Part shown: in pieces, positions 11,391-50,484 of the stretch | Layout: each line of letters starts with the position of its first letter | Position numbering within the stretch: the first letter of the stretch is position 1 | NCBI GenBank assembly: GCA_963713615.1 | Contig: CAVQMM010000001.1 | Coordinates: 3,232,001 to 3,296,000 of the forward strand | DNA: 64,000 bases | Source: an uncultured Chlamydiae bacterium | GTDB taxonomy: Bacteria; Chlamydiota; Chlamydiia; Chlamydiales; JAJFMA01 | Reading direction: 5' to 3' | Translations under genes and position numbers: made by a program | Notes under the pieces: generated by a model | Told to the model about the DNA's origin: nothing | Databases searched by the model: none | What the model saw: only the letters and a program-made list of their open reading frames with translations

Positions 11391-11843
11391 ATGTCACAGT
11401 CATTAGCTTGCATGTTGGTACATGTCATTTTTAGCACGAAGAACCGTCAGCCCTTTATTCAACAGGGAACCATGCCCGAGCTTTTTGCCTATATGGCAGG
11501 AACAGCCAGGGGATGTGCTTCCCATGTATACGAGATTGGTGGCGTTGAGGATCATGTTCACGTGTTGCTTACGCTGCCAAGAACGTTGGCTTTATGTAAA
11601 TTGGTCGAAGAACTCAAGAAGTCATCTTCAAAATGGATAAAGACCAAAGGCCATATTTATGCCGATTTCTGTTGGCAACATGGATATGGAGGGTTTTCAG
11701 TAAGTCAGTCGGAAGTGGAAAAGGTTCGGAGATACATTAGAAATCAGCGTCAACATCACGCCAAAATGACCTTTCAGGACGAATATCGCTGTTTTTTAAA
11801 TCGATACAATGTTGCCTTTGATGAGCGCTATGTGTGGGATTGA
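11391..11843 (+). CDS. tnpA: Y1 HUH transposase (IS200/IS605 TnpA-like), REP-associated by position
   Basis: HVIFSTKNR, DHVHVL (HUH), WQHGYGGFSVS, YIRNQ (catalytic Tyr); REP array starts 9 nt after the stop. Confidence 0.92.
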   Translation: MSQSLACMLVHVIFSTKNRQPFIQQGTMPELFAYMAGTARGCASHVYEIGGVEDHVHVLLTLPRTLALCKLVEELKKSSSKWIKTKGHIYADFCWQHGYGGFSVSQSEVEKVRRYIRNQRQHHAKMTFQDEYRCFLNRYNVAFDERYVWD

Positions 11844-14905: not shown

Positions 14906-16102
14906 TCAGTCTTCCTTCTGACGGTAATCCCTGTCATGTATGAGTATCGACCATATTACTCTTATCATATGACGGGCAAATGCTCGTACTGCTTGGTTAT
15001 GTTTTTTTCCCTCTGCTCTCTTCTTCTTGTAGTACTGTGCAGCCTCATCACATAGTTGTATATGTCGAGCAGCTCCGGTCATCATAGCTCCCTTTCCCCT
15101 CCAGTTAATATTTCGAGGCGATCGAGACCCCTCATATTGGCCAGAACTCTTGTTCAGAATTCCTATTCCCAAGTAGAGCGCTAGACTAGCTTCCGACTTA
15201 AACCGATCGATACTACCAATCTCTCCAGCGAGTTCTGCGGCACAAATGGAACCATATCCAGGAATAGATTCAATCCGAGATGCTATCTTGGATTGTGGGA
15301 TCAAACCCTCTATCAATACCTCCAACTGCGCTATTTCATCTAGCATCTCGAGTAGCCTTCTGACATCTCGTACTATTAATTTTCCTATCCACTCAACCTT
15401 TGAAGAGAACTTAGCCGTCTTTTGCCATTTCTGAATTTCCTCTGCATAAACCTCTCCAACGCCCTTGATTTGCAACAGGCTTCTTTTTTGCATTCGAAGC
15501 AACATGGTCATGTCTTCCTTCGAAGCAAGAAATCGTAGAAACCAAAGATTTGCTGGATTTTTTGTAATAGACAGTAGACCGGGGCAAACAGCCTGTAGAT
15601 CCCCTTGAAGTCGATTTATGATTCTTGTCTTTTCTTTTACCAACTCTCTACGACGCCTTGAAATATGTTTAAGTTGCTCGTTGCATACCGGTGGAGGCTC
15701 TACTTTCTGCAGAATATTTTTTGCCAACGGTAAGGTCTCTTGAACTTGAAACAAGCTAAAAATAGCCCAAGCGTCAATTGGATCTGTTTTGGCTGGACCA
15801 GGAAAAACTTCCTTAAATCTAGCCAATTTCATGTTGTTGACACTATACAAAGAATATCCGTGATCAAGAGCATATCTATCGATGGGTCTAGCATAGCCAT
15901 TAAACCCCTCCATAGCCATGACAACAGGCATGTTATAGGAAATTCTAAGCTTCTCAATTTTCTCAAAAAACTGCTCAATGTCTTCAGAAGTGTGGTTTAG
16001 ATAAAATCCATCGATGCGTTCTCCTGTGGACAAGCCTATGGCTACATAGTGTCGAACGCTACCGATATCTAGACAAATACGAAGTTCGGACTGATTTTGC
16101 AT
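14906..16102 (-). CDS. IS110 family transposase / bridge recombinase
   Basis: DEDD RuvC-like residues (CLDIG, MEGFNGY, KTDPIDA), SIPGYG, EIGSIDRF, SSG serine motif. Confidence 0.95.
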   Translation of the reverse strand: MQNQSELRICLDIGSVRHYVAIGLSTGERIDGFYLNHTSEDIEQFFEKIEKLRISYNMPVVMAMEGFNGYARPIDRYALDHGYSLYSVNNMKLARFKEVFPGPAKTDPIDAWAIFSLFQVQETLPLAKNILQKVEPPPVCNEQLKHISRRRRELVKEKTRIINRLQGDLQAVCPGLLSITKNPANLWFLRFLASKEDMTMLLRMQKRSLLQIKGVGEVYAEEIQKWQKTAKFSSKVEWIGKLIVRDVRRLLEMLDEIAQLEVLIEGLIPQSKIASRIESIPGYGSICAAELAGEIGSIDRFKSEASLALYLGIGILNKSSGQYEGSRSPRNINWRGKGAMMTGAARHIQLCDEAAQYYKKKRAEGKKHNQAVRAFARHMIRVIWSILIHDRDYRQKED

Positions 16103-16139: not shown

Positions 16140-16353
16140 TCACCCAAATTCCACTTCTACTTACAGAGCCACAATCAGAAGATTGGCACCATCCCGAACG
16201 GAATTATTGGATGATGCAAACGACGAAGGCGGCATATCGGGCCAGGCGAACAAACATTCGCTAAGGGCACACGGCCACACCTTCGTCGGCCAAAATGATA
16301 CCTTAGAGAAATGTTTTTTGTCTTTTCCTATTACCGTCGATAATCGTTTGCAA
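16140..16353 (-). ncRNA. Predicted IS110 bridge RNA
   Basis: Two stem/internal-loop domains. Guides UGCCCUU and GCCCGA match the REP target; CGGGAUG and GUAGA match the element's circle junction. Ends are approximate. Confidence 0.85.
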
Positions 16354-17020
16354 AATCCTATGGTAGAAGGGCAGACATTGCAACAGGCCATGGCACCGCC
16401 ATGGTATATGCCAGGAATGGATTTCGCAGTCTGAAGGACTGCAACAAGACGCATGCACAAATGACGCGTCCACAAATAAACATATTCTGGCAGTCTTTCA
16501 GACTGCGTCATCATTTTTTGGCATATACCATGGCGATGCCATGGCCTGTTGCAATGTCTGCCCTTCGGGCTTAGGATGGGAGACGGTGTGTGTTGCAGCA
16601 ATATTGTGTGTGGATGTCCGAGCAATCACCTGCGTGGCTGTTAACCGAGTCCAGGGTGCTACACGGACATAATTCGTTCATAGGATGGGTGATGGTGTGT
16701 GTTACAGCAATATTGCCTGTGGATGTTCGAACAATGATCTGCGTGGTTGTTAGCAGAATCCAGGATAATACACGGACATGATTTCAACGATAATTTTGAA
16801 TCAAACATTGATAATTTCGAATCGGACGTCTATTAATCGACCTTTTGTCAGATATGCTGTCACCATTTCTATGCCCGAAGGGCAGGCATTGCAACAGGCC
16901 ATGGCATCGCCATGGTATATGCCAGGAATGGATTTTGCAGTCTGCAAGACTGCCATAAGGTGTTCTAAACAATCTCTTGTGAATGTCACATAGATTGATT
17001 TCTGGAAGCTCCCCAAAAAA

Positions 17021-24271: not shown

Positions 24272-24570
24272 ACAATCATTGCTCGGCGCGCAGCGCTTTG
24301 GAGTGCGCGTCGCTCGCGACCGCTTTGGAATTGGGCGAAGCTATAGCCTCACGACCGTCACCCTCCCCACACCCCAAAGGCCTCACAATCGTCACTCGGC
24401 GCGTAGCGCTTTGGAGTGCGCGTCGCTCGCGACCGCTTTGGATTTGGGCGAAGCTATAGCCTCAGGACCGTTACCCTCCTCACCCCCCAAAGCCCTCACA
24501 ATCGTCACTCGGCGCGTAGCGCTTTGGAGTGCGCGTCGCTCGCGATCGCTTTGGATTTGGGCGAACCTCT
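24272..24570 (+). repeat. REP family B tandem array, 3 units, period 113 bp
   Basis: gcgctttggagtgcgcgtcgctcgcgaccgctttgg at 24293, 24406 and 24519. Confidence 0.93.
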
Positions 24571-24584
24571 TGCTTCACAAGCCA

Positions 24585-25115
24585 TTAAAAGTCATCATAA
24601 ACATTTACATTATCTATTTTGAAGCTCTCTACGGTTTTTTGAAAGGCCCTTGAGGCGGTCTTCTGGAACCAATTTGCAGAACACCATGTATATTCAGCGG
24701 CGTTTTCCACGAGTTTATGTCGAACTGGATTTTGCTTAACATAGTTCAAACGCGCCAAATAAGATCGTTCGAAGGTTAGGCGCGTATCCCAGAATTGATG
24801 CCACACCTGACGACCAGGTGTGCCATCCCTTTCGTTAACGATCCTTGCTGTAATGCCGTGTAGCTTATTGATAAATATATTTAGATTTTGTGGATCCTTA
24901 GGAGCACTTGCCACAAAATGATAATGGTTACTAAAGACGGCCCAAGCCTGCAAACTCCAATTAAATTCATTCGCACAAGAGATAAGGTTATTTTGCAGTA
25001 TGGTAAGTCTTTCTGGACATCTAAAATGATGAAGTTTGCGATAGGTACCTGCAGTCACCATGTAGGTTCCTTGATTGGCGGTCCAGTGTGGTGGGCTATG
25101 TGGCCAGTGTTCCAT
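24585..25115 (-). CDS. REP-associated tyrosine transposase (RAYT)
   Basis: YMVTAGT, NHYHF (HUH), WHQFWD, NYVKQNPVRHKLV and YTWCS motifs; flanked on both sides by REP-B; likely start ATG 25115 (MEHWPH). Confidence 0.9.
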   Translation of the reverse strand: MEHWPHSPPHWTANQGTYMVTAGTYRKLHHFRCPERLTILQNNLISCANEFNWSLQAWAVFSNHYHFVASAPKDPQNLNIFINKLHGITARIVNERDGTPGRQVWHQFWDTRLTFERSYLARLNYVKQNPVRHKLVENAAEYTWCSANWFQKTASRAFQKTVESFKIDNVNVYDDF

Positions 25116-25197
25116 AAGGTTCCTAAGAGCGTTTTTTAGGAAAGAAAAGATATTATTTAAAATAATTATATGCAAGTTTTAGGTTGTTAAAAAAAAG

Positions 25198-25586
25198 ACT
25201 GGCGCCGAAAGACGATTGTGAGGGGTTTGTGGTGTGAGGGTGGATGTAAGGGTTTGTGGTGTGAGGGGGTGGCGGTCGTGAGGCTATAGGTTCGCCCAAA
25301 TCCAAAGCGGTCGCGAGCGACGCGCACTCCAAAGCGCTGCGCGCCGAAAGACGATTGTGAGGGGTTTGTGGTGTGAGGGGGTGACGGTCGTGAGGCTATA
25401 GGTTCGCCCAAATCCAAAGCGGTCGCGAGCGACGCGCACTCCAAAGCGCTGCGCGCCGAAAGACGATTGTGAGGGGTTTGTGGTGTGAGGGGGTGACGGT
25501 CGTGAGGCTATAGGTTCGCCCAAATCCAAAGCGGTCGCGAGCGACCGCACTCCAAAGCGCTGCGCGCCGAGAGACTATTGTGAGGG
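25198..25586 (-). repeat. REP family B tandem array, 3 full units plus a partial one, inverted relative to the left array
   Basis: ccaaagcggtcgcgagcgac(g)cgcactccaaagcgc with period 111-112 bp. Confidence 0.93.
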
Positions 25587-30351: not shown

Positions 30352-31732
30352 CTACGTCGCGGCTTGGCTGACGACATAGACTTGTCGCTGGCTTTTGTAC
30401 CGGACAAAGTAAATCAGGGTCATGACGCAACTGCAGATGGCTGTAGTCATGAAGGCTTGGTCTACCGTGCCTCCGTAGACGACGAGTACAAAATAGACTG
30501 GGACGACATACAGCAACCAGTTGCATAGTGTACTGATGACCATGATGAATTTGGTGTCTCCTGATGCTGTCAGCATACCTACGAGCGCCCAATAGATGCC
30601 ATCGATCAGATAAAACGAGCAGATCCATCCCAATGTACGTTGGAGGACCATGACAAATTCGGGGTTGGATAGAATTTGACGATCGTCCACTGACATAACC
30701 ATCCCAAACAGCTGCTCAGGTGCGGTAACGACCACTGCTGCTAAAGCGAGGCTAAAGATGGCCACCAGCTTGATGGCGCTTGTGAGGACTTTATCTAGAA
30801 AGTGGGTTTGGTTTCCACCGATCAGATTCGAAGCGATGGCCGTCACAGCCTTGGAGATACCTTCGGTAAGAAAGTGTCCGGCGATGTAAACGCTCTGAGC
30901 TAGGGTGACGATGGTGATCCCAAAGCCTCCAGAGAGGATGACGATGCGGAAAAAGACAAAGTGTGCCAACAGTTCGTTAAGGTGTCCGAGGCCCTGATGG
31001 CAGGCCGATCTTAACGCATTCCCAGAATGCTTTAGGGCGAAAGGCCCATGCATTGGTGCCATACTGTTTGCGGTATGAGGGCTTCCAGAAAATCATCAAA
31101 AAGAAGACGACACTAATAGCGCCACCTAAGCCTGTGGCAATGGCGGCTCCGGTAACTCCCATTTCGGGAAAAGGTCCCCATCCGAAGATTAAAATGGGAT
31201 CGACGATGACATTGATTAAATTGCCCAGAATAGTCGCAAATGTCACCAACTTCACAGTACCCTTGGCGGCGAAGAAGCCGCTGAGTGCCGGTGTGCAGAT
31301 GAAGAAAGGTCCAAAATAGAGCATTGTGCTGAAGTAATCGATCTCAAGCGCCTCGTTCCCGGTGCCCCAAAAGATATAGGGAGCGGCAAACCACGCAATC
31401 GCGCAAAAGACAGGCGCTAAAAATAGTGCGAACCAAAGCATCTGCCAGACGGGTTCGCCCATGCGCTGCTTCTGGTCGCTGCCATGGTATTGTCCGACGA
31501 AGACTTCGGCAATACCTGCTGTAAGCATAGGAACGATTAGAAAAACCCATACCGCCAAGCCTGCGTTTGCAGAGGCATTTAACGCCTGCAGGGAATAGTG
31601 GGCGAGATAGAGCCGGTCTGCGAACATCATTAAGCTACCGGAAAGCAGCGATAGCATGAGGGGATAGGCGATGTGCCACATCTCCCGAAGCGATCCGATT
31701 GGATGTCGAGTCAGTTGGTAACTATTTTGCAT
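30352..31732 (-). pseudogene. MATE efflux transporter split by a +1 frameshift
   Basis: Two overlapping ORFs encode the N- and C-halves; removing one base of ccc at 30992-30994 restores ...GLPSGLGHLNELLAH... Confidence 0.75.
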
Positions 31733-38539: not shown

Positions 38540-38862
38540 TATACAATCCTGTAGTGGAGTCCCTAAGATCTTACTCAATCGCGGCTTTTTTGCCCAACCT
38601 CTGAACCCGAAACGCTAGTGTAAACCGGACTGCTTGTCCAGTTGTAAATTTCCCCAAGTGAAATTTTTATTCACCGAGACCCTCTATCCTCAAACTCAAA
38701 AAAAAATAACATAAATGACTATATCTTCGCAATCAGAATGATGATACGAACTTAAAATTAAACGTTGATTGAAATATAAATAGTTTGATTTAATAGTATT
38801 GTGGTTACAAAAGATTGTATGATAGGGGATATAGTAATTTAAAAAGATTGAGTGGGACGCCC

Positions 38863-39744
38863 ATGAACGGATTTTTCAAGCGAGTGGGCGTGTGTGTGTT
38901 AGTACAGTGGATGATGATCATTGCGGTATCGGCTACTCAGCCAGTGCTTGGGTTTGTGCTTGAGAAACCCAGTCCAAAATGGGGTCCTTCTCCTCAAGTT
39001 GGTACAACGGGAGGGACTGTCGACTGGACAATTCTTCCAGCAGGTGAAACTTTTAACGTCGGCGGGAGCACATTCATCAGCACGGCTCTCGATGTTCAGC
39101 CAAGAGCAGGGCTACTGACTCCCGCGCAGATAGATCATCAGATCAACAGGGCATTCGATACTTATCAGGCTGCAGCGAACATTAATTTTGAGGAAGTGGC
39201 CTATGTTCCCAAGGCTCCTGCCTTGCACGTCGGCGAAATTACCCTTGGAGCTCATTCTTTTGGTGCGTCCAATAAAAGTGAACTAGCCTATACCTTATAT
39301 TCGATAGGGCCTAATGATGCCATTTCAGCCGATATTCAATTTAACAGTGACTGGCTATGGGAAAGTGGTAATGCATTGGGTAACCTAGCAGTGGACCTAT
39401 ACTCTGTGGCTTTGCATGAAATAGGTCATGCTCTGGGGCTCGCTCACGATACGACTAATGTTGCGGTAATGAACCCCATCATCAGTACAAGTACGGTTTA
39501 TACGGGTTTATTTGCCGACGATCTTGCAGGGATCCAATACCTTTATGGTAAGCGTGGCAATTCCACGGGACCAGTAACGCCGCCACCACCGGTTTATAAG
39601 CAGACCGGCAGTGCCGATGTGAGGTTGCCTGAACCCAGTACCTATCTGTTATTAGGAGCTTTTCTGTTGGTTGCTGTGATGAAAGGACCAAAGGGACATA
39701 AAAGACATAAAGGACGAAAGGACCAAAGGGACGAAAAGAGGTAA
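38863..39744 (+). CDS. Matrixin-like (M10/metzincin) metalloprotease with PEP-CTERM sorting signal
   Basis: Signal peptide; HEIGHALGLAH plus Met-turn AVMNP; LPEPSTYLLLG, then a TM helix and a basic tail. Confidence 0.85.
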   Translation: MNGFFKRVGVCVLVQWMMIIAVSATQPVLGFVLEKPSPKWGPSPQVGTTGGTVDWTILPAGETFNVGGSTFISTALDVQPRAGLLTPAQIDHQINRAFDTYQAAANINFEEVAYVPKAPALHVGEITLGAHSFGASNKSELAYTLYSIGPNDAISADIQFNSDWLWESGNALGNLAVDLYSVALHEIGHALGLAHDTTNVAVMNPIISTSTVYTGLFADDLAGIQYLYGKRGNSTGPVTPPPPVYKQTGSADVRLPEPSTYLLLGAFLLVAVMKGPKGHKRHKGRKDQRDEKR

Positions 39745-40366
39745 TTGCAGAAGTCCGATTTTCCGAAATCAATTTCCTGAAAATCGGATGCCGGTGAAGA
39801 GAGAGTCATTCCCTTCCCAGGCCCGAAGGGTCGATATTGCAACAGGCCATGGCATCGCCACATAGGCCTCAACCTAACAGGTCTTTTGAGCTTATATCTC
39901 AATGACTTAGGACTTCACAATCGTATCTCGGCGCGCAGCGCTTTGGAGTGCGGTCGCTTGCGACCGCTTTTCGTTCCTTGGGACGGCAATGCTAAACGGC
40001 ATTGTATGGATTCGTCGAAGGCTGTATGTACTAACTATTTTACCCTTAGGGAATTATAGTGATGCCGTTGCACACGACCGTCGCAAGGAACCCAAAGCGG
40101 TCGCAAGCGACCGCACTCCAAAGCGCTGCGCGCCGAGATACGATTGTTAGGCTTAGGTTGAGGCCTATGTGGCGATGCCATGGCCTGTTGCAATATCGAC
40201 CCTTCGGGCCTGGGAAGGGAGAAAAGCCTGTCTTTCCAGACTGGATAGTGCCATACCACTTAAGCTCTCCAGAATCGCCTTCTCACAAAAAAAAGTGATT
40301 TTTTTTCCCAAGAATCGATCCATGAGAGCCCAAATACTTCTGAAGTCACTTTGGTCCTTTTGTCCA
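39683..40366. mobile_element. Nested composite palindromic element, copy 1
   Basis: ggac-type repeats > agaggtaattgca end > REP-A variant pair > REP-B pair; nearly identical to 48410-49162. Confidence 0.85.
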
Positions 40367-41446
40367 AAAATCCCTACGAACGCCTTGCCAGACATCGTGG
40401 CCGTAGGCGATTGTCAAATCGACTTTCACCCAGGCGATTGGAAGGCTAGTATCAACGCTATCTGGAAGCTTCACCTTGTCCTTTTCGGTGCATAGGAGCA
40501 TCTCAGCGCCTCTCTGACGGCTTCTTTCGGAAAAAGCGACCAAGGCCTTGGGAGGTAAAAGGTGGTGGTCGGCGGTGGCAAGTTCATCGATAATGAGAGC
40601 ACCTTGATCTTCGACTGTGGCGCGGAATTTTTCTGGCTTGGCAATGCCGCAAAAGAGGGCAACTTTTTTGCCGCGGAGATTTTTCACAGGTTGTCCATGT
40701 AGAGTTTGAATTGCGGTCACCTGGACTTGTGTGCCGACTACCTGTGCATCGGTGTATTGGCGTAATTGGTGCTGAAGCAATGCAAAGGATTCGTCGTTTT
40801 TCACATGGTTGAGAACGACCATATGTGCTCGTTGCAGACCTTTAAGGCCTTCGCGTAGAAAACCGCGCGGAAGTAGGTAGTTCAGACCAAAAGGGTCGTT
40901 AGCATCGACTACGACAATTTCAAGATCACGTTTTAGACGTCTGTGTTGCATGCCATCATCTAGTAAGATGAGTTTGGCGCCGGCTTCGGCAGCCATATGG
41001 GCGGCTTGAATGCGATCACGTCCGACTATGACAAGGACCTTTGGTAGTCGCGATGAGATCAAAAAGGGTTCATCGCCACACTGTTCAGGGCCATAGAGAG
41101 GTCCATGACCACGACTAAGGAAAATAGGTGCTTTGCTGCGTTCAGCAGCGGAACGATATCCGCGCGACAGTACAGCCACTGGCTGATCTGAGAAGTGTTC
41201 TGCTAGTTTTAGAATGAGAGGGGTTTTGCCGGTGCCACCAGCTACAATATTGCCTACGCTGATGATGGGGATTTCTACGGTGTGGGAAGAGAAGATTCCA
41301 CGGTCATAAGCAGCATTGCGTACTGAGGTGACTAGCTGATAGGGCCAGCTTAAAGCTTGCAGAAAACCACGGGTTAGACTGGACAGTCGCCCCTGATTGT
41401 TTCCGAGCACAACATCTCGCCAGTGCTTTTCTAGCCCCTTCAGCAC
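40346..41446 (-). CDS. lpxK: Tetraacyldisaccharide 4'-kinase
   Basis: SVGNIVAGGTGKTP, LSRGY, GDEP, LDDGMQH, TEKDKVKL. Confidence 0.95.
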   Translation of the reverse strand: MLKGLEKHWRDVVLGNNQGRLSSLTRGFLQALSWPYQLVTSVRNAAYDRGIFSSHTVEIPIISVGNIVAGGTGKTPLILKLAEHFSDQPVAVLSRGYRSAAERSKAPIFLSRGHGPLYGPEQCGDEPFLISSRLPKVLVIVGRDRIQAAHMAAEAGAKLILLDDGMQHRRLKRDLEIVVVDANDPFGLNYLLPRGFLREGLKGLQRAHMVVLNHVKNDESFALLQHQLRQYTDAQVVGTQVQVTAIQTLHGQPVKNLRGKKVALFCGIAKPEKFRATVEDQGALIIDELATADHHLLPPKALVAFSERSRQRGAEMLLCTEKDKVKLPDSVDTSLPIAWVKVDLTIAYGHDVWQGVRRDFWTKGPK

Positions 41447-41453
41447 AACCAGC

Positions 41454-42053
41454 CTATGTCTTGCTTGCAGTGGCTAGCATAGGGCTTTCGAGCAAGTGCT
41501 CCGCCATTTCGATGACGATGTGAATGGCAGCCATATGAGCTTCTTGAATGCGGTCGGAGGTTTCGAGATCTGTGATAATCAGTTCTAGATCGGCAACGCC
41601 CTTCAGCTTACCGCCATTTTTTCCCAGGAAGGTTACGGTGGTAAGCCCGCGTTTTTGGGCGGTTTCGACGGCCCGAACGATGTTAGGGGAATTACCGCTC
41701 GTTGTCAGGCCCACAAAGATATCACCAGGCTTTCCAAGCGCTTCTACACCGCGTGAAAAGACTTGGTCGAAGCTTGTGTCATTCGCCGTGCAGGTGATGT
41801 GGCCTGCATCATTTAGAGCAATGGCTGGCAGCGCCGCTCGCGGTTTGCGGAAATATCCCGTCAGTTCCTCGGCGAAGTGAGCCGCATCGCAGAGGCTTCC
41901 TCCGTTGCCAGCTATAATGACTTTGTTGCCAGCCTGGAAGCATTGTGCCAATACCTCGGCAAATCGTTCGATAAAGGTGATCGCATGGGGTTCCGACAGT
42001 TGACGCACTGCATTGATGCTATCTTCAACAGAAATCAAAATCTTTTCTCGCAT
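41454..42053 (-). CDS. gmhA: Phosphoheptose isomerase
   Basis: GNGGSLCDAAHFAEE, TTSGNSPN, RIQEAH. Confidence 0.95.
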   Translation of the reverse strand: MREKILISVEDSINAVRQLSEPHAITFIERFAEVLAQCFQAGNKVIIAGNGGSLCDAAHFAEELTGYFRKPRAALPAIALNDAGHITCTANDTSFDQVFSRGVEALGKPGDIFVGLTTSGNSPNIVRAVETAQKRGLTTVTFLGKNGGKLKGVADLELIITDLETSDRIQEAHMAAIHIVIEMAEHLLESPMLATASKT

Positions 42054-42133
42054 AACCTCTTCCCCTCCGGAACTTTATAAGCTCTTCATTTGTACATCCC
42101 CATGCGATAAAGACGCAATACACAAAAAAAAGG

Positions 42134-42724
42134 TTAGCTCTTTGGAACAAGGTCACAAGCTTCAACCGGCATCCAATGCGCATCCTTTCCGTCCCATTTG
42201 ACGTTGCAGCCGATGGGGTTGGTCAGAGGGACGGAAATGGGCTTGCCAGCCAGATGCTCTTCCAACGCTCGATCTAGATCATGTACTTTAGCCTTACTAG
42301 AATCCTTGGGACTGTCAATAGCGCGTCCGCAATAGATCAACTTACGGTCTTTGTCAAAGACATAGAAATGCGGGGTTCGCAAGGCTCCATAGGCTTTGGC
42401 TATGTCTTGAGTGGCATCATACAGATAGTACCAGGGAAAATGATGTTTTTGCATGCGCTTGACCATATGCTCGAAAGAGTCTTCCTCATAGGTGTGAGGG
42501 CTATTTGAGTTAATACCCACGAAGGTGACGCCTTGCCCGGCAAAACGGTCAGCCGTCTGGCGGGTGGCTTCGTCCGAGCCGGTGACATAGGGACAGTGAT
42601 TACACGTAAAGAAGACGACTAAAACGGGTGACTTATCAAAGTCTTGAAGCGAGTGCGTTTTGCCGTCCGTACCCGCTAAGCTGAAGTTTGGAGCCTTGGC
42701 TCCTAAAGGAAGTGTAAAAACCAT
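42134..42724 (-). CDS. Thioredoxin-fold AhpC/TSA-like protein
   Basis: CNHCPY, TPHFYVFD, IGCNVKW. Confidence 0.85.
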   Translation of the reverse strand: MVFTLPLGAKAPNFSLAGTDGKTHSLQDFDKSPVLVVFFTCNHCPYVTGSDEATRQTADRFAGQGVTFVGINSNSPHTYEEDSFEHMVKRMQKHHFPWYYLYDATQDIAKAYGALRTPHFYVFDKDRKLIYCGRAIDSPKDSSKAKVHDLDRALEEHLAGKPISVPLTNPIGCNVKWDGKDAHWMPVEACDLVPKS

Positions 42725-42785
42725 GACTTGCTAGCCTCTGTAAAAAATGATGTTTATCCAATCATGCGTGATGAAGCCCTTTTTT

Positions 42786-42885
42786 AGGAATTAGGATTTA
42801 GGAGCTAGGATTTTTATCACAGAGAGCGCCGAGACGCAGAGGTAGGACTGAGAGGAAAGGAAGAGTCGATATTGCAACAGGCCAA
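42786..42885 (+). repeat. Degenerate family D arm joined to a REP-A variant fragment
   Basis: ttttatcacagagagcgccgagacgcagaggtagg followed by gtcgatattgcaacaggcca. Confidence 0.65.
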
Positions 42886-42951
42886 GCTCTCACCCCTTTC
42901 CTTCTCGCCTCGCGTGCTGTCTCCTTCCTCAGAAATGGCACTTGGGTTACA

Positions 42952-44271
42952 ATGGCCGATTTGGAAGAAAGCACGCGGAGGTTTAAGATGATGGCAACTA
43001 TAGTTTCATTAATGATTGCCGGAGCCGTGTGGTTTCTGGATATTGTCCCAGCGGCTTCGACGATACCCTGGTTGGCTGCTGGTGTCGGTGGACTGTTCTT
43101 ACTGTTACTGGTGTTGGCTAACTTGATGTATGTTCAGCCCCTCCAGTGGGCTGAAGTCAGGGCCACTCCACGGGTTGTCCTACTCATGCGAGCGGACTCT
43201 TCATTGCGCTGGTTAGGCGGTTTTTTAACGATTTTGCCCGTGATATCGTTTGCTATTGCTGCAGGTGCAATTTCAGAGCTTTGGGCGAGTACTGCGACTA
43301 TATTCTCTGCTTGGCTGGTCCTTGTGGGTTTATCAATCGATCTTCTCAGAATTTATTATACGCGTATCGGCAGCTATCTGATTCCCAGCACGGTTGTTCA
43401 GAACATCGTTGTGCGTGCGCAAGCCGATATTGCGCAAGGCCGTGACCTAGAGCTGTGCGACTGGATGGCTACTCTCACCGAAGTTGCTTTGATGTCACTC
43501 AGCCGCCAAGGGTCTTCGCTTGCTGAACGTTCCGTTAGTGGTATTTCAGCTTTATTGCAGCGCTTTCTAGAGGTTCACCGTAGGAGCCTTCAGACAGAAA
43601 CTTCCGATGCTAAGGTGCATCAGCGTGCCAGTTACGTGTTGTTCTATGGGATGGAGCGTCTTCAGCTGATCCATCATCGCGCGTTGGCGGATGATTTGGA
43701 ATCTGTGTGTAGCCACGTTGTTACTTCGCTTGGCAAGGTAGCGGTAGCTGCGGCTCACGGAGATATCTCCAAGGTCAGTTATCCAATCCACTATATGGGG
43801 TCATTGGCTTTAACGGCCTTGAGCAGTGGCCTTTCTGAAGTGCCAGTCAAGGCTAATCTGACCCTTGTTGAAGTGGGCAAACTTATCCTTACCGAAGTGG
43901 ATCTATCAAAGGCTGTCGTGCGCGATCCGATGGTCAATTTAGTGACCCAGCTAGAGGAGATTGCTAAGGCTACCTTCCGAAGGGATAAGGATAGCAATAT
44001 CAGCGTTCTGACACAGCCCTTGCGCGATCTAAAAGCGTCCTTGCAGTCACACGCTTTGGCGGACCGTTCTGATGTCAAGGCTGTGGTAGCGGCTATTGAT
44101 GCCGTATTGTCAGACTTTGATAATTTACAGTTAGTCTTGCGAACTCTTCCCACAATTCCAGATGTTCCCGTAACAGATGAAGGCCTACCTGAAATTCCAG
44201 AGTTGGCTAAAGCTGCAAGGGCCAATGCTCCGGCAGCGGCGCCGTCAGCACCAGCGGCTCCTTCGAAATAG
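42952..44271 (+). CDS. Hypothetical membrane protein
   Basis: Four N-terminal TM segments and a helical C-terminal domain; start uncertain. Confidence 0.7.
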   Translation: MADLEESTRRFKMMATIVSLMIAGAVWFLDIVPAASTIPWLAAGVGGLFLLLLVLANLMYVQPLQWAEVRATPRVVLLMRADSSLRWLGGFLTILPVISFAIAAGAISELWASTATIFSAWLVLVGLSIDLLRIYYTRIGSYLIPSTVVQNIVVRAQADIAQGRDLELCDWMATLTEVALMSLSRQGSSLAERSVSGISALLQRFLEVHRRSLQTETSDAKVHQRASYVLFYGMERLQLIHHRALADDLESVCSHVVTSLGKVAVAAAHGDISKVSYPIHYMGSLALTALSSGLSEVPVKANLTLVEVGKLILTEVDLSKAVVRDPMVNLVTQLEEIAKATFRRDKDSNISVLTQPLRDLKASLQSHALADRSDVKAVVAAIDAVLSDFDNLQLVLRTLPTIPDVPVTDEGLPEIPELAKAARANAPAAAPSAPAAPSK

Positions 44272-44860
44272 GATGCGGAATCTCCAGCTGGTAATGGTGT
44301 AGAGCTATTCGGTCCGGAAAATTCCACGAGCGACCGCCATAGCGTTCATCGCCTAGAATGGGATGGCCTATGGCTGCCAATTGGCTGCGTATTTGGTGGT
44401 AGCGTCCCGTCTCTAATTCGATGTCTAGAAGAGCCAGCGTCCCAGAAGTCGCTGCGACAACATAATGCAAACGCGCCAGCACTGCCCCAGGTGTTGCGGA
44501 GGTGGCAATATCTGAGCGATGGTCGCCGTGAGTCATATAATGTTCTAGGGTTTGCTCCGAAGTGTCTGGAACGCCAATGACGATAGCCCGGTAGTGTTTA
44601 CGTGTTTCTTTGGCGCGCATGGAGGCGTTTAGGCGCGATAATGCTTTGCTGGTTCGCGCGAACAAAACGATCCCGCTGGCCGGTTTGTCTAATCGGTGTA
44701 CGGCATGCAGGAATACATTGCCAGGTTTGGAATACTTATCTTTGAGCCATGTTTTGCAGAGGTCTTCTAGATTGGACTGCTGTGTGCCGCTGGCTTGTGT
44801 CAGCAGGCCTGCTGGCTTGTTTGCGGCTAGGATATGGTTGTCGTCGTAGAGGATGTTCAT
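44207..44860 (-). CDS. RluA family pseudouridine synthase
   Basis: NKPAGL, HRLDKPASG, TGRYHQIR, HPILGD. Confidence 0.92.
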   Translation of the reverse strand: MNILYDDNHILAANKPAGLLTQASGTQQSNLEDLCKTWLKDKYSKPGNVFLHAVHRLDKPASGIVLFARTSKALSRLNASMRAKETRKHYRAIVIGVPDTSEQTLEHYMTHGDHRSDIATSATPGAVLARLHYVVAATSGTLALLDIELETGRYHQIRSQLAAIGHPILGDERYGGRSWNFPDRIALHHYQLEIPHPISKEPLVLTAPLPEHWPLQL

Positions 44861-45681
44861 AGACCTTTCTTGCGCTGCCTTAAAACTTCATAAAGCAGCA
44901 GCGTTGTGGCCATAGCGACATTCAAAGAGTCTGCAATACCACACATCGGGATGCGCACCTGGATGTCAGCGCCTTCCATCCAGAGCTTCGATAAACCCAG
45001 CTGTTCGGTTCCCACAGCGATGGCGATCGGGCCAGTGAGATCGATGTCGGTATAGACCTTCTCAGCCTGTGGGGTGGCCGCCAGGATGCTCACACGATGG
45101 TCTCGGAGCCACTGCAAGGCCTCGACACCGCCGCACTCGATGACAGGAACGCTGAAGAGTGTTCCTACGCTAGCACGCACGACGTTGGGGTTAAAGACAT
45201 CTGTACAGCGATCGCATACCAAAAGACTATCAAGCCCTACGGCATCGCTAGAACGCAGAATAGTCCCCAAGTTTCCAGGCTTTTCAATAGCTTCGGCGAC
45301 AACCAAAAACGGCGCATGAGTCGATGAGGTGAGATTTTTAAGGTCATCAAGAGAGCGATGCTGTTGGTGAGCGATAGCTAGCAGGCCATCGGGGCGATCG
45401 CGATAGGATAATTTGCGAAAGACTTCAGGCGTACAAGACAGGACCTGAGCACCAGTGTGATGGATGCTTTCAATGAGAGCGCTTTCATTGGTGCCGAGAA
45501 ATAGCTCTGAACAGGTAAAGAGTGTTTCGATAGGCGCCGAACCTTGCTTAGCACGATACAGTTCGCGGTAGCCTTCGATCAAAAAGAGTTGTGTGGTATC
45601 GCGGTCGCGTCGGTCGCGCAAGCGTACGGCTAACTTAACTTTAGGATTTTGCAGGCTGGTGATGTCGGCGCTACTGACCAT
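44857..45681 (-). CDS. TrmH/SpoU RNA methyltransferase
   Basis: EKPGNLGTILR, GTEQLGL, IPMCGIADSLNVA; start approximate. Confidence 0.92.
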   Translation of the reverse strand: MVSSADITSLQNPKVKLAVRLRDRRDRDTTQLFLIEGYRELYRAKQGSAPIETLFTCSELFLGTNESALIESIHHTGAQVLSCTPEVFRKLSYRDRPDGLLAIAHQQHRSLDDLKNLTSSTHAPFLVVAEAIEKPGNLGTILRSSDAVGLDSLLVCDRCTDVFNPNVVRASVGTLFSVPVIECGGVEALQWLRDHRVSILAATPQAEKVYTDIDLTGPIAIAVGTEQLGLSKLWMEGADIQVRIPMCGIADSLNVAMATTLLLYEVLRQRKKGL

Positions 45682-46531
45682 TGCTCCACCGTGCATAGGT
45701 ACCACTGGGCAGGGCGGGGACGGTTGCGTCGCCCTCTAAGAGCATTTCGCCTTGTGTTAGGTGGCCACCTAAGCCTTTCATCATTTGGTCTAGCAGGTGT
45801 TTCATACACACAGGAGTGATTCCGGGTGTGTGACAAGATAGCAGCACAAACAAAGGTTTGTCGCTCAGAAGCTGGCGACAGGAATCCAATAACGGGACAA
45901 GGTGTTCTTCGATTTTGAATAATTCACCTTTGTTGCCGCGTCCGAAGGTAGGTGGATCCAGGATGATGGCGTCATAGCGGCGGTCGCGGCGTAGCTCGCG
46001 TTGTAGGAACTTGGTGACATCATCGACGATCCAGCGAATGGGTGCTTTGCCCAGGTCGTTGAGCCGGGCGTTATCTCCAGCCCAAGAGACCATTCCCTGA
46101 GAGGCATCAAGGTGACAAACATGAGCTCCAGCCTGTGCTGCTGCTAGAGTGGCTCCTCCGGAATAGGCAAAGAGGTTTAAAACCTGGATCTCGCGATTCT
46201 CTTGCGCTCTGCATTGTGTGATGCTTTTACGAATCCATTCCCACGCTGAACGTTGTTCCGGAAAGATCCCTAAGTGACCAAAGTCGGTTGTCTTCAGCCT
46301 AAAACGAATGCCAGAAACGGTGATGTCCCACGCTTCAGGGAGCGCTGACCTGTTATGCCAACGGTTATCTTCATCGCGACTGAAGAGAGCATGAGCCTGT
46401 TTCCAAGCTGATTCAGGCAGCTGGGGATGCCAGATGGCCTGGCTGGCTGGACGTACCAACACGTATGGACCGAAGCGCTCTAGCTTACGCCCATTGCCAC
46501 TATCAAGAAGTGAGTATTCTAGGTTATTCAT
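45671..46531 (-). CDS. Class I SAM-dependent methyltransferase (RlmI/RlmK-like)
   Basis: LNLFAYSGG, IILDPPTFG. Confidence 0.88.
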   Translation of the reverse strand: MNNLEYSLLDSGNGRKLERFGPYVLVRPASQAIWHPQLPESAWKQAHALFSRDEDNRWHNRSALPEAWDITVSGIRFRLKTTDFGHLGIFPEQRSAWEWIRKSITQCRAQENREIQVLNLFAYSGGATLAAAQAGAHVCHLDASQGMVSWAGDNARLNDLGKAPIRWIVDDVTKFLQRELRRDRRYDAIILDPPTFGRGNKGELFKIEEHLVPLLDSCRQLLSDKPLFVLLSCHTPGITPVCMKHLLDQMMKGLGGHLTQGEMLLEGDATVPALPSGTYARWSNGQ

Positions 46532-46604
46532 ATCGAAAACAGTATAGCTCTTTCGCCTGTAATATGGCTACTCTATACACCGCGCGTGGTCCATCTAATC
46601 CTTT

Positions 46605-46659
46605 GGCCTTGTTCACCTTTGCAGTCAGTTTTCGGTCGACTGCAAAGGTGAACAAGGCC
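46605..46659. repeat. Repeat family E, short perfect hairpin
   Basis: 22-bp arms ggccttgttcacctttgcagtc / gactgcaaaggtgaacaaggcc, 11-nt loop. Confidence 0.9.
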
Positions 46660-46794
46660 CTTTTCATGTGGTTGCTGTTGATGTGCTTTTATGCGCTTGT
46701 GCTTGTTTATAAGAGTCTTTGATTTTTATTGGAATGAATTGTTGGAAAGTGTATAAAATAGTCTATGTAAAATAAACTAACTTGAGAATTGATT

Positions 46795-48330
46795 ATGTTT
46801 AATTATTTCAGTATAGATGGCAATAGAGAAGGCAGGCAAATAATAATTGATGAACTGAAAGACAGTGCATTAAAGAATCTTTCCGTCAAATTGGATCAAA
46901 TGGTCTCTCTTTATCAAACATACTGTAAGAAGGCACTTGGCAATAAACAAGATGTGCAAATCGCGTCTATGTCGAAGCAGCAGCGGCATATTGATTGCCA
47001 CCATGCCGTAGACATACTTTGTGATGCGTTTGTAAAAAAAGTGGAAAAATTATCAGCGGAAATTTGCAAGTTTAGTTTATACAACCAAAAGTTGTTGATT
47101 AAGGAATTACTGTTAAGAGAGCCTGCTGATTTAATAAAGATCAGCACTTTGCTTCGAATCGGCCTCGATGAGGATGTTATCCAATTGCTTCGGAGAGAAT
47201 TAGAAGCCTTAGATCGTTGTGAAGCGAACGCTCAAAAAACACTTATCATCTTACAGGAATTGTTAAGTCCGGAAGAATTTTCTCAAATGTTAAACAAATT
47301 AATAAATTCCGGAGCGGAAGTTAGAGATTACATTCAGAACAATTATTTTTCAGATGCAATAACAGGGTTCACACGCCGATTTAAGTCATGTGACGTGAAA
47401 TCTCCTATGAGAGAACGACTGCTAGAACGAATTCAATCCATTTTAAATGTTGTGATGCCTAGCTTGGATAGAGATCTGATTGTGAAGCATTTTCTTGGAT
47501 GCTGCGCTTCGATTCAAAGCTATATGTGTTTGAGTGCAACACCTGATCAGTGGTCCGACATACTTTTTCCGTGGATTAAAGACCAAAGTGATTTGGCTAA
47601 TTTAGTAGGAGATATGCCTCAAACCCCGCAAAGCAAACAAAGAATTCAGGAGCTTTTCCTTGAAAGTTTGAACAGGATTAAGGACGAGCCAAACAAAACA
47701 CTACAGGAATTATTAGAGTTGACCAATCGACTCTACAGTAGTGCCAAGGATGATCAAGGAAGGGAGTGGGCAAAGAGGCTTTGGATCCAAGCATGCGAAA
47801 TCGTTATTCAGAGTGCTCAGGGGCCAGAGGATTATCGGAGGATCTTCGATCTACTGAATGTTCCTTATTGGCAAATTCAATGCTGGGTAGAACTTTTAGA
47901 GCCTCAAGATATTCTCGAACACTGCAAACAGAATGGGCTTGAGTCATACCTCAACACCTATTTTGTACTTGCTTGTCAACGCTCAGAGATCGACTTCCTG
48001 CATCTTTTTGATGAGGTGTTTCCGTTAAATGCTAATTCGGAACTGACTATCAAGATGAAGAAAAAGATTAGGGGAATGCTTACCATTCTGGTCGAACATG
48101 AGAAGGAGTTTGCTCATCTCAACGAGCCTCGGGTAGATCAAATTTTTTCACAAGTGGCCGAACGGTTATCGGTAGCGGATTATCAAAATTTTATCGGCTT
48201 GACATCGTCTTATGGATATGACTCTAGCAGTTTGGTAAATAGAAGATTATACAGAGCTGGTAGTGCTCACCAAAAAGAGCCGCTAATGGATATAGACGAT
48301 CTAATACTAAATCGATACGGTTGGAATTAG
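46795..48330 (+). CDS. Hypothetical helical protein, AT-rich gene
   Basis: ~511-aa ORF; no recognised motif. Confidence 0.7.
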   Translation: MFNYFSIDGNREGRQIIIDELKDSALKNLSVKLDQMVSLYQTYCKKALGNKQDVQIASMSKQQRHIDCHHAVDILCDAFVKKVEKLSAEICKFSLYNQKLLIKELLLREPADLIKISTLLRIGLDEDVIQLLRRELEALDRCEANAQKTLIILQELLSPEEFSQMLNKLINSGAEVRDYIQNNYFSDAITGFTRRFKSCDVKSPMRERLLERIQSILNVVMPSLDRDLIVKHFLGCCASIQSYMCLSATPDQWSDILFPWIKDQSDLANLVGDMPQTPQSKQRIQELFLESLNRIKDEPNKTLQELLELTNRLYSSAKDDQGREWAKRLWIQACEIVIQSAQGPEDYRRIFDLLNVPYWQIQCWVELLEPQDILEHCKQNGLESYLNTYFVLACQRSEIDFLHLFDEVFPLNANSELTIKMKKKIRGMLTILVEHEKEFAHLNEPRVDQIFSQVAERLSVADYQNFIGLTSSYGYDSSSLVNRRLYRAGSAHQKEPLMDIDDLILNRYGWN

Positions 48331-48354
48331 TTCTGTTCCTCCGATAAGCTTGAA

Positions 48355-49202
48355 TTGGATGGACTAAAGGACGAAAAGGACTTATAGAATAATGTCCGCT
48401 GAGTCCTTTAGAGGTAATTGCAGGAGTCCGATTTCCGAAGTCAATTTCCTGAAAATCGGATGCCGGTGAAGAGAGAGTCATTCCCTTCCCAGGCCCGAAG
48501 GGTCGATATTGCAACAGGCCATGGCATCGCCACATAGGCCTCAACCTAACAGGTCTTTTGAGCTTATATCTCAATGACTTAGGACTTCACAATCGTATCT
48601 CGGCGCGCAGCGCTTTGGAGTGCGGTCGCTTGCGACCGCTTTTCGTTCCTTGGGACGGCAATGCTAAACGGCATTGTATGGATTCGTCGAAGGCTGCATG
48701 TACTAACTATTTTACCCTTAGGGAATTATAGTGATGCCGTTGCACACGACCGTCGCAAGGAACCCAAAGCGGTCGCAAGCGACCGCACTCCAAAGCGCTG
48801 CGCGCCGAGATACGATTGTTAGGCTTAGGTTGAGGCCTATGTGGCATCGCCATGGTATATGCCAAAACGGTTTTAACAGCCTGTAGGGCTGCCATAAAGC
48901 GCATGCATAAATGGTGTTTGTAAACTGGCGTCTTGTAGCAGTCCTTCAGACTGCGAAATCCCTTCCTGGCATATACCATGGCGATGCCATGGCCTGTTGC
49001 AATATCGACCCTTCGGGCCTGGGAGGGGAGAAAAGCCTGTCTTTCCAGACTGGATAGTGCCATACCACTTAAGCTCTCTAGAATCGCCTTCTCACAAAAA
49101 AAGGTAACCTTTTTTCCCGAGAATCGACTCTCAGGGGCTCAAATAATTTTGCAATTACCTCTTTATGTCCTTTTCGTCGCTTTGGTCCTTTAGTCCATCC
49201 AA
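48355..49202. mobile_element. Nested composite palindromic element, copy 2 (with extra 137-bp REP-A insert)
   Basis: Outer 18-bp IR ttggatggactaaaggac (48355-48372 / 49185-49202); 13-bp IR agaggtaattgca (48410 / 49150-49162); inner REP-A variant and REP-B pairs. Confidence 0.88.
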
Positions 49203-49251
49203 GAGAGACCATACACCAAAGCTTCACAAGAACCCAATTTTCATCTCTATC

Positions 49252-50484
49252 CTACAAGTAGTTCACGGCTAGCCAAAGGCGGCAAAGCGCAGCATTGACA
49301 CTAGATTCGATGATATTCGCTCGAGTTCCACGTGAGCGAAGTTTCCACGTCACAACTACGCCGTAACGATTTCCTATAGCTATCCAGACGGTTCCTACGG
49401 GTTTTTGAAGGCTTCCTCCCTTGGGGCCTGCAATGCCTGTTATTGCTAAGCTGTAGTCGCTGCCGGTGGCTTCTAGAGCCCCTTTAACCATTTCGATGGC
49501 TACATCTTCACTGACAGCTCCATGCTGAAGAAGAGTGTCTTCATGGACTCCTAAGAGCTTTCTCTTGAGGTCATTGGAATAGCTCACAACCGATCCGCGA
49601 AAATACTCCGAAGCTCCTGCTAGCGATGTCAAGCGTGCTGCGACAGCTCCGCCAGTACACGATTCAGCAGTGCCTAGGGTCAGCTTACGCTCAATAAACA
49701 GCTGATGAATGGCTTCTTCAATACGCTCTGTAGATGCCGGAATAGCGCAGTCGTGGAAGCGCTCGACAATCGTTCGCTTGGTCCTGGCCATGACCTCTGT
49801 AGCCTCGCCATTAGACTCCAATGCCGAAAGAATCACCGTAAGCACTCCGGGGCGAGGGTAGATTCCTACGGCTACATCGGGATTGCTTTTGACGACTTCT
49901 CGTAGGAATGGATCAACTTCTTCTTCACGGACACCTGTGAGGAGGACATGGTCCTTGCGATACATCGCCTTTTGAGGCAGGCGATCTTCCAGGTAGGGTT
50001 TCACAGAGGTCTGAAAAATGGCCTGCATCTCAATAGGGATGCCTGGTAGTAAGACGAGAGTGACTGTATTGGCTTCAAATAGCAACGCTGGGGCTGTTCC
50101 AACATCGTTGGGGATAACTTTGGCTTTGGATGGTACGGTGGCCTGGTTTTGCAATGTCGCCAAGTCATTTCCATAACGTTCTCGCAAGCTCGCTGCTATT
50201 CCATCATCGAAGCGAAACCCTGAGTTAAAAATCTCCGCTACCACTTGTCGCGTATTGTCATCTAGGGTGGGGCCCAGACCGCCAGTCGCAATGACTAGGG
50301 TATTTTCTTGCAAGATGCGTGTTAAACGACGCCGCAAGGCCTTTGGTTCGTCAGGAAGAGTGTGAGAGGCGCGAACAGTAAGGCCGAGATTGCCTAGTTC
50401 TCTACAGAGATAGGCGGCATTGGTGTTGACAACTAGGCCGCTCAATAACTCATCGCCAATGGTGACAATTTCTACACTGTCCAT
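49252..50484 (-). CDS. cinA: CinA family protein (molybdopterin-binding domain plus NMN deamidase)
   Basis: IGDELLSG, GGLGPTLDD, AESCTGG, ITGIAGP. Confidence 0.93.
   Translation of the reverse strand: MDSVEIVTIGDELLSGLVVNTNAAYLCRELGNLGLTVRASHTLPDEPKALRRRLTRILQENTLVIATGGLGPTLDDNTRQVVAEIFNSGFRFDDGIAASLRERYGNDLATLQNQATVPSKAKVIPNDVGTAPALLFEANTVTLVLLPGIPIEMQAIFQTSVKPYLEDRLPQKAMYRKDHVLLTGVREEEVDPFLREVVKSNPDVAVGIYPRPGVLTVILSALESNGEATEVMARTKRTIVERFHDCAIPASTERIEEAIHQLFIERKLTLGTAESCTGGAVAARLTSLAGASEYFRGSVVSYSNDLKRKLLGVHEDTLLQHGAVSEDVAIEMVKGALEATGSDYSLAITGIAGPKGGSLQKPVGTVWIAIGNRYGVVVTWKLRSRGTRANIIESSVNAALCRLWLAVNYL

Follow-up and report, generated by a model that had tools for sequence, protein, structure and literature searches.

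Here we describe a stack of nested inverted repeats at positions 48355-49202 of a 64,000-nucleotide window (G000:C1:3232001-3296000) in the genome of an uncultured Chlamydiae bacterium (3.97 Mb in 3 contigs, 46.8% G+C, 99% complete). The structure is probably a five-layer stack of non-autonomous repeats, built insertion by insertion by enzymes acting in trans, and not copied as one hairpin. The layer boundaries, the target duplications, the empty sites (of element A in layer 0, and of element C in A) and the links of two repetitive extragenic palindromic (REP) families, REP-A and REP-B, to single-tyrosine (Y1) transposase genes are all seen directly, and predicted IS4-family insertion sequences in metagenomes have the exact termini of C and the same type of target.

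In the proposed mechanism, element A would be moved by a DDE (Asp-Asp-Glu) transposase making 4-bp AT-rich duplications beside GGAC/GTCC repeats. An IS4-family DDE transposase would recognize the near-palindromic 11-mer (T/G)GGC-NNN-GCC(A/C), present in the REP-A core once per arm, cut it with an 11-bp stagger and insert C, carrying a REP-B doublet, into A's REP-A hairpin. Both doublets, REP-A and REP-B, would be hairpins of the REPIN (REP doublet forming hairpin) type, handled by two Y1 enzymes and captured by the shells before the families expanded, a proposal made because shells with other interiors exist elsewhere. The REP hairpin of each shell would serve as landing pad for the next element, so that Y1-type and DDE-type layers would alternate.

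The modules were delimited by steps in BLAST hit depth along the copy at 48355-49202 (copy B; a second copy in the window is called copy A). They are listed below in window coordinates unless a contig is named, together with the inverted pairs (I1 and so on) or other evidence on which each is based.

48355..48410, + strand: left arm of layer 0, the GGAC-type palindrome (GGATGGAC...); inverted pairs I4, I6 and I7
48364-48411: small central hairpin of layer 0
48407-48410: TTTA, left copy of the 4-bp target duplication of A
48411..48481, + strand: left shell of element A (L1L), beginning with the terminal repeat GAGGTAATTGCAG; copy-number step at 48410/48411
48482..48532, + strand: left REP-A arm (L2L) of the central hairpin of A; I2, 51 nt at 98%
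48522-48532: TGGCATCGCCA, left copy of the target duplication of C, being the last 11 nt of L2L
48533..48586, + strand: left end of element C (L3L), the 17-bp terminal repeat CATAGGCCTCAACCTAA and an unpaired 37-nt stretch; I3
48587..48821, + strand: REPIN-B (D), two inverted REP-B units; I1, 86 nt at 90%
~48610-48639 and ~48768-48797: REP-B cores, with a central core at 48643-48760
48822..48841, + strand: right terminal repeat of C (...TTAGGTTGAGGCCTATG)
48842..48852, + strand: TGGCATCGCCA, right copy of the 11-bp target duplication of C
48853..48978, + strand: original loop of the REP-A hairpin of A (L6'); empty A copies run into this loop
48979..49029, + strand: right REP-A arm (L2R); I2
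49030..49161, + strand: right shell of A (L1R), ending ...TGCAATTACCTC; flanks of the right end
C1:3280411-3281161: the whole A element of copy B, 751 bp
49162..49202, + strand: right arm of layer 0 (TTTATGTCC...GTCCATCC); I4 and I6; begins with TTTA, the right copy of the duplication of A

The initial annotation had described this segment as four repeat families lying inside one another as inverted pairs, and all four pairs are real and in place: the outermost of 27 nt at 89% (48355-48381 / 49176-49202), one of 13 nt at 100% (48410-48422 / 49150-49162), REP-A of 51 nt at 98% (48482-48532 / 48979-49029), and REP-B plus core of 86 nt at 90% (48589-48674 / 48734-48819). Two further inverted pairs had been overlooked, one of 31 nt (48519-48549 / 48825-48855) and a perfect one of 23 nt (48842-48864 / 48967-48989).

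A query of 901 nt around copy B returns 1458 BLAST high-scoring segment pairs genome-wide. Near-full-length matches number roughly 90 to 310 per module, with coverage of at least 80% in 117 of 131 matches for L1L, 258 of 313 for L2L, 309 of 467 for L4L (REP-B) and 255 of 308 for L2R. With overlaps resolved, 1281 module matches fall into 300 clusters that occupy 85.9 kb, or 2.16% of the genome. Searching layer by layer with BLASTN for simpler forms, as had been recommended, does recover them: of the 300 clusters, 81 are full stacks, 35 are A elements without C and 128 hold REP-B alone, and uninterrupted solo palindromes of layer 0 lie elsewhere in the genome. L1L adjoins L2L 110 times and never abuts L1R, the two REP-A arms never abut directly, and the C ends adjoin REP-B in 82 (L3L-L4L) and 74 cases. 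In this genome L1 does not occur without L2, nor do the C ends occur without REP-B. The structure is nested, but the figure of four independent families has to be corrected, and the separable units in this genome are layer 0, element A, element C and free REP-B doublets.

The full composite was not found in any of the 30 relatives searched, mostly drafts in which repeats assemble poorly; short pieces only were seen there, namely layer-0 repeats and REP-A-like or REP-B-like cores. No Rfam family reaches its gathering score in window positions 39500-49400, and neither Pfam nor NCBIfam provides a family for the reading frames within the stack or within the REPIN-A-like array described below.

Element C consists of the L3 ends and the REP-B doublet, measures 309 bp and carries no transposase gene. 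A whole-genome census of pairs of its 17-bp terminal repeat, with up to 2 mismatches, gives 91 copies, 60 of them exactly 309 bp long. Perfect 11-bp direct repeats flank 70 of the 91 in eight sequence variants, each matched on both sides: TGGCGATGCCA (32), TGGCATCGCCA (22), GGGCATCGCCC (6), GGGCGATGCCC (6) and four singletons. The GGGC...GCCC form is found in 14 of these 70 (6 GGGCATCGCCC, 6 GGGCGATGCCC, 1 GGGCTATGCCC and 1 mixed, TGGCGATGCCC), and the remaining direct duplications read TGGC-NNN-GCCA, one base off GGG(N5)CCC at each end. Flanks of other kinds border 14 copies, 8 of which retain a REP-A-type 11-mer on one or both sides, while most of the remainder represents a sister family located in REP-B. 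At least one flank is the REP-A 11-mer in 84 of the 91 copies.

Because empty A copies hold a single 11-mer per arm, the 11-bp repeat flanking C is a target-site duplication. The L2L end is exact in 64 A copies, of which 33 continue from the arm into the loop and 31 into C. Where both ends of A are well preserved (45 elements), 15 are empty and 1 has a duplicated loop; C occupies the left arm in 20 (11 and 9 in the two orientations) and the right arm in 9 (5 and 4). The earlier suggestion that the repeat families target one another is borne out by target duplications and empty sites. One A element, at G000:C1:74163-75216 (1054 bp), has a single C with loop sequence on both sides, for which a simple 11-bp staggered cut is insufficient.

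The composite had also been thought to be copied as one unit and to travel as one long hairpin. On this account it would be a single mobile unit, moved as a hairpin or by its outermost terminal repeats, and the ~80 stacks would stem from one founder. There are indeed 81 full stacks, the terminal repeats of A are intact around them, so that filled A elements should stay mobilisable, and some identical shells share the same C state. The single-strand fold is also very stable, as folding, an advised check, confirms (-289.8 kcal/mol against -111.9 +/- 5.4 for 20 shuffles, z = -32.8), which is a trivial consequence of the inverted repeats. Against a single founder stands the divergence of the layers: pairwise identity across the same 25 composites is 99.6% for C, 95.6% for the L1L shell and 89.8% for the L1R shell (the last figure being taken from an alignment). 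Since the unpaired parts of C are also highly alike (centre 98.9%, bulge 99.8%), correction within the hairpin is not the cause of its uniformity.

The distribution of C over the shells points the same way. The four arm-by-orientation classes are of similar frequency. In a maximum-likelihood tree of 45 shells (204 columns, with many branches weakly supported), the empty or filled state takes at least 9 changes against a shuffled mean of 11.8, and the five-state character of arm and orientation takes 22 against 25.0 (15 of the 200 shuffles are as low); there are also three sets of identical shells that differ in their C state. The variant 11-bp duplications match locally, and the two copies in the window differ in architecture. 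Because of the divergence gap, the scattered state on the tree and the locally matched duplication variants, C is likely to have entered dispersed A copies separately, many times. Some filled A elements may have been copied as units, but an origin of all stacks from one founder is unlikely, and neither copying as one unit nor travel as one long hairpin is supported by the divergence and the tree.

The ends of C are of a known kind. Its start, CATAGGCCTCAACCTAACAG, matches all 8 conserved positions of the signature CAT-------AA--TAA, given for the IS231 subgroup with a duplication of 10-12 bp in the table of PMC2266710; the 11 bp of C lie within that range, and the ISH8 pattern (CAT-----------T) fits too. 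For IS231A, Table 1 of PMC2577343 gives an 11-bp duplication and the target GGGNNNNNCCC, and the target of C conforms to the palindromic GGG(N5)CCC type of IS231A. The IS231 transposase moves cassettes with IS231 ends in trans (PMC6199540).

Scanning public metagenome contigs with the 17-mer of C gives 35 loci, mostly probable chance matches, only 11 of which have a second end or homology. In 6 loci the termini of C (16-17 of 17 positions) are spaced 1507-1669 bp apart. The two of these with reading frames listed, L060 and L046, each contain one long frame that matches PF01609 and scores 175.7 and 221.8 bits, respectively, with NF033592 (cut-off 115), and hence encodes a predicted IS4-family transposase. 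The metagenome loci with C ends have 10-11-bp duplications of the GGG(N5)CCC type (e.g. GGGCAACGCCC on either side of L041), and four more loci contain small elements of 268-399 bp that share these ends but lack REP-B. We infer that C would be mobilised by an IS4-family DDE transposase acting in trans.

Candidates for an autonomous partner within the genome were rejected. Where C ends are paired at a distance of 2.2-2.6 kb, a C copy has been split by an IS66-like (10 copies) or an IS1634-family insertion. The PF01609 genes of this genome belong to ISAs1, IS1634 and IS701, elements whose ends are unlike those of C or A; fuzzy searches for terminal repeats near all PF01609 matches in the genome found nothing, and PF13586 and PF13359 are absent from it.

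Alternatively, every layer could be a REPIN-like hairpin that the two Y1 enzymes mobilise in single-stranded form, the duplications being a cleavage sequence common to the element ends and the target. This would fit the two Y1 genes cognate to two REP types, the palindromic nature of all layers and the want of a DDE partner in this genome, but we consider it improbable. The extra 11-mer copies the local target variant (eight matched variants), as expected of a staggered cut and not of a fixed element end; the orientation of C is uncoupled from the arm, where strand-specific Y1 insertion predicts coupling; and C shares its termini with IS4-family insertion sequences, whose transposases are of the DDE type. 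To our knowledge, moreover, Y1 transposition of the IS200/IS605 kind makes no target duplication.

Element A comprises the L1 shell, the REP-A arms and the 126-bp loop, ~430 bp when empty. Its ends (GAGGTAATTGCAG... and ...TGCAATTACCTC) are sharp, with terminal repeats of 12-20 bp that are mutual reverse complements, and GGAC or GTCC stands 4-5 nt outside each end. Identical 4-nt flanks (TTTA, TAAA, ATAT, AATT, TAAT and others) occur in 41 of 107 paired A ends, against 6.4 expected from shuffled pairings. The filled site of copy B is GTCCTTTA-A-TTTATGTCC, where a solo palindrome has AGTCCTTTACGTCC. GGAC-type repeats are also found in relatives of the same genus without the inner layers. Reading frames overlapping A have no Pfam match, and A shows the generic features of MITEs (miniature inverted-repeat transposable elements), namely terminal inverted repeats, a duplication, small size, freedom from genes and many copies. 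Among 301 Chlamydiota genomes sampled, the 20-nt end of A (at most 2 mismatches) is present in 9: 146 times here, 31 times in G002 and 40 times in G250. In G002 and G250 the same ends enclose other palindromic interiors, of 167 bp and 342 bp respectively, the duplications being TTAT and TTTA and GGAC-type repeats lying alongside; because of these different interiors, the A shell is a unit of its own whose interior differs by lineage.

Several variant forms of A occur. Empty A elements form tandem arrays (G000:C1:2273505-2277289, 1173286-1175179, 476526-478848 and 2600817-2603020) of up to 9 units with a period of ~455-473 bp and a constant spacer, resembling the ordered tandem REPIN arrays of Pseudomonas. 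A 'mini-A' of 211 bp (G000:C1:249166-249376) has the shell with a much shortened hairpin, and in contigs of three metagenome runs (X2, X3 and X8) position 48511 is joined to 49000 via ~68 other letters, which looks like the mini-A form.

The second stack of the window (copy A) has the following layout.

39738..40340, + strand: L1L 39738-39809; REP-A 39810-39860; C 39861-40169; REP-A 40170-40220; L1R 40221-40318; then a degenerate end

The initial annotation had reported this copy as having few differences from copy B. It is present, and 98-100% identical over the common parts, but its right end is degenerate and it lacks 137 bp (48842-48978). These 137 bp are no extra insert in copy B but the original hairpin loop plus one copy of the duplication, and it is copy A that has lost the loop. 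In copy A, C lies between the 11-mer and its reverse complement, so that it belongs to the inverted-flank class. The A element at C1:1015135-1016206 (1072 bp) has two right ends of C in the same orientation, 457 bp apart, and the size expected if both arms are occupied. If two such direct copies recombined, the loop would be lost and C would end up between the 11-mer and its complement, as in copy A; we infer that the loop-less form is secondary, one possible route being recombination of C copies on both arms.

An empty site in related genomes, which had been proposed as a further check, exists for copy A: the gap between the M10 peptidase and LpxK genes is ~42-46 bp in G001 and G003 and 601 bp here. 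For copy B, none of the relatives has a homologue of the neighbouring gene beside cinA. Next to copy A, the gene for the M10 (matrixin) peptidase (window 38815-39744, + strand) has a PEP-CTERM-like tail, and its frame continues into the GGAC-type repeats; layer 0 of copy A thus provides the final ~20 codons, which are rich in K, G, R and D.

Repeats commonly cause mis-joins, and the stacks were judged here from assembled contigs, so that mis-assembly could in principle have made the window copies or the nesting. This is very improbable. The window copies are bordered by different genes (M10 peptidase and LpxK at copy A, a gene of no known kind and CinA at copy B), which excludes the assembly duplication that had been named as a possible refutation; they also differ by an indel and substitutions, and dozens of other copies have unique flanks. 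The same modules at 99+% identity, and some of the junctions, recur in contigs from four independent peat or soil metagenome runs (four studies), and L037, one of the loci from the 17-mer scan, holds C plus the loop at 99-100% identity. In the four runs the depth on the modules is far above that of the unique flanks, and one run holds the flanks too, without differences; contig coverage in these runs gives neither copy number nor polymorphism.

A last alternative is that the nesting arose mainly from recombination, template switching or hairpin processing at palindromes. Inverted flanks in 7 of 91 C copies and in about 40% of A elements, the inverted flanks of a further family (M1), the tandem A arrays and the duplicated-loop forms would all agree with such palindrome growth. 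It is nevertheless hardly probable as the main process, given the direct 11-bp duplications of 70 of the 91 C copies, the empty and filled sites that differ by exactly the element plus its duplication, the autonomous insertion sequences with the termini of C, and the unrelated interiors bounded by the same A ends in other genomes.

Some of these data, and others, weigh against stepwise insertion by enzymes in trans, which we prefer. The 4-bp duplication is seen in only 41 of 107 A elements, and inverted flanks are about as many. Seven of the 91 C copies stand between the 11-mer and its reverse complement, and the M1 family, which has IS231-type ends, shows inverted flanks only, so a hairpin or recombination process reshapes these elements too. 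No autonomous partner with the ends of A was found in this genome, nor an IS4-family transposase (best NF033592 score 36 bits against the cut-off of 115), although the 99.6% likeness of the C copies suggests recent activity. Gene conversion among C copies could mimic such youth. Finally, this genome preserves no empty site or duplication from the two proposed captures, REP-A by the A shell and REP-B by the C shell.

The Y1 side of the system is represented by two genes of the window and their associated repeats.

24585..25172, - strand: REP-associated tyrosine transposase (RAYT) gene, cognate to REP-B; NF047646 83.7 bits against a cut-off of 80; HYH and YVKQNPV motifs in the translation
24282-24554 and 25302-25583: REP-B arrays flanking the RAYT gene in inverted orientation, three REP-B per side
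11391..11840, + strand: second Y1 gene (IS200-type), cognate to REP-A; NF033573 57.6 bits against a cut-off of 55
11841-14185 and 16377-16953: tandem array of REPIN-A-like hairpins, ~510-bp period, 3' of the Y1 gene at 11391-11840
14906..16099, - strand: IS110-family transposase gene within the REPIN-A-like array; PF01548 and PF02371; NF033542 173.7 bits against a cut-off of 140

The initial annotation was right that the composite joins the REPs of these two genes: REP-B lies around 24585-25172, and REP-A-like hairpins follow 11391-11840. The gene at 24585-25172 has the characteristics of a RAYT, i.e. the model score, the motifs, inverted flanking REPs and dispersed doublets that form hairpins. 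Relatives of the protein are found in Parachlamydiaceae and Chlamydiota metagenome-assembled genomes, and in two other Chlamydiota metagenome-assembled genomes the homologues are flanked by TTGGAGTGCG plus a hairpin whose stem is different yet complementary.

The gene at 11391-11840 fails the RAYT model (NF047646 22.4 bits against 80). Half a REP-A hairpin begins directly after its stop codon; REP-A-like units occur downstream only, and none was found upstream. Orthologues are present in 24 of 121 genomes of the order, including this one, and the nine best are 55-63% identical. Both sides of the orthologue in G023, a genome in a single contig, carry inverted copies of a ~95-nt sequence with homology to the loop end plus REP-A; these flanks contain the CCATGGCG-TGCCATGG core, which holds the target of C. 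Of the 6 Y1 genes in the genome studied here, only these two have the modules nearby. Frames of 112-154 aa in the ~510-bp array (12187-14126 and 16161-16622) have no Pfam or NCBIfam match and are probably not genes.

Nesting appears to continue in some copies by IS66-like and IS1634-family insertions into REP-B. Ten C copies (e.g. G000:C1:939029-941640) are interrupted at the same point of the REP-B stem by an IS66-like element of ~2.3 kb with a TnpB-like frame and a 514-aa transposase. In several places (C1:2942647, 2332112 and 3306223) the TTGGAG of REP-B is occupied by an IS1634-family element (1878 bp, ends CGGAAGTTCACCCCT), and the sister family of C, with ends CATAGGCATCAACTTAAGC, lies inside REP-B units. 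Tentatively, and with more doubt than the layered origin itself, we suggest a self-extending chain of parasites on parasites, in which the REP-A core would be the obligate landing pad of C, and REP-B would then host further elements (IS66-like, IS1634-family and a second family with IS231-type ends). If so, each wave of repeats would make a niche for the next, C would be a hyperparasite of a REPIN population, and the chain would have helped to make this chlamydia's genome so unusually large.

Another pair of IS231-type ends (CATATGCATTAAGCTAAGAG...) bounds a 2444-bp cassette without a transposase at G000:C1:2161909-2164352, which resembles a mobile insertion cassette of the MIC231 type; its passengers, judged by eye, are a glutamine-amidotransferase-like hydrolase and an amino-acid permease. 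Short versions of this cassette's family (264-496 bp) have inverted, not direct, flanks. Elsewhere in the window, two overlapping frames at 30352-31729 (- strand), both MatE, look like one efflux gene split by a frameshift.

Among known systems, C most resembles the IS231 subgroup and its derivatives in the Bacillus cereus group (MIC231 cassettes and MITEs). It shares their ends, the 11-bp duplication and the target of the GGG(N5)CCC type, and it carries no transposase gene, so that mobilisation in trans would be expected; autonomous relatives with the same ends encode predicted IS4-family DDE transposases. PMC2266710 describes the IS231 subgroup as almost exclusive to the B. cereus group. Unlike that subgroup, C resides in a Chlamydiota host without a cognate transposase in its genome, has a REP doublet as interior, and in 84 of 91 copies occupies the same 11-mer of another repeat's hairpin.

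The stack also resembles REPIN/RAYT systems. Bertels and Rainey (PMC3116915) report five regions of Pseudomonas fluorescens SBW25 in which REPINs apparently lie in or beside REPINs, as well as tandem REPIN arrays and clusters near RAYT genes. Hairpin-forming REP doublets, single-copy Y1 genes flanked by their own REPs, tandem arrays with flanks and occasional REPINs within REPINs are common to both. Here, in contrast, the doublets are ~230 bp long and embedded in DDE-type shells, one of the two Y1 genes scores as IS200-type, and the nesting is systematic (81 stacks), site-specific and accompanied by target duplications, whereas the five regions reported there are unordered.

Insertion sequences that target REP or bacterial interspersed mosaic element (BIME) sequences are known, including IS1397, IS621 and IS1594 (Tobes and Pareja 2006, as cited in PMC3184786). 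As in those cases, a short stretch inside a REP is the preferred target, and in this genome IS66-like and IS1634-family elements also lie in REP-B. Unlike them, the invader here is high-copy and non-autonomous, and brings a second REP family with it, which leads to stacking. The stack is also, like BIMEs, a mosaic of REP units in alternating orientation. The BIMEs of enterobacteria are linear mosaics of one REP family, with units alternating in orientation together with other short motifs; we know of none bounded by terminal repeats with target duplications.

The word 'nested' is absent from a 2024 review of prokaryotic MITEs (PMC10969869), and in the literature searched, at the level of listings and abstracts except for the papers cited here, no multi-layer nested MITE or REPIN system was found beyond the remark in PMC3116915 and the cases of insertion sequences entering REPs. 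The individual mechanisms are of known kinds, and it is their combination that is new: a systematic alternating stack of Y1-type and DDE-type layers, and a high-copy, 99.6%-identical orphan element of the IS231 type in Chlamydiota, its enzyme absent from the genome, resident almost exclusively on one 11-mer of another repeat. IS231/ISH8-type ends and cassettes are thereby extended to Chlamydiota. REPINs have been discussed as long-lived, vertically inherited replicators living with their host; in this genome, a mobile element of another, unrelated type targets a REPIN core almost exclusively. With an insertion history readable from duplications, empty sites and divergence, the stack provides a natural system for the study of mutual exploitation among repeat families, of palindrome target specificity and of the repeat-driven inflation of a host-associated genome.

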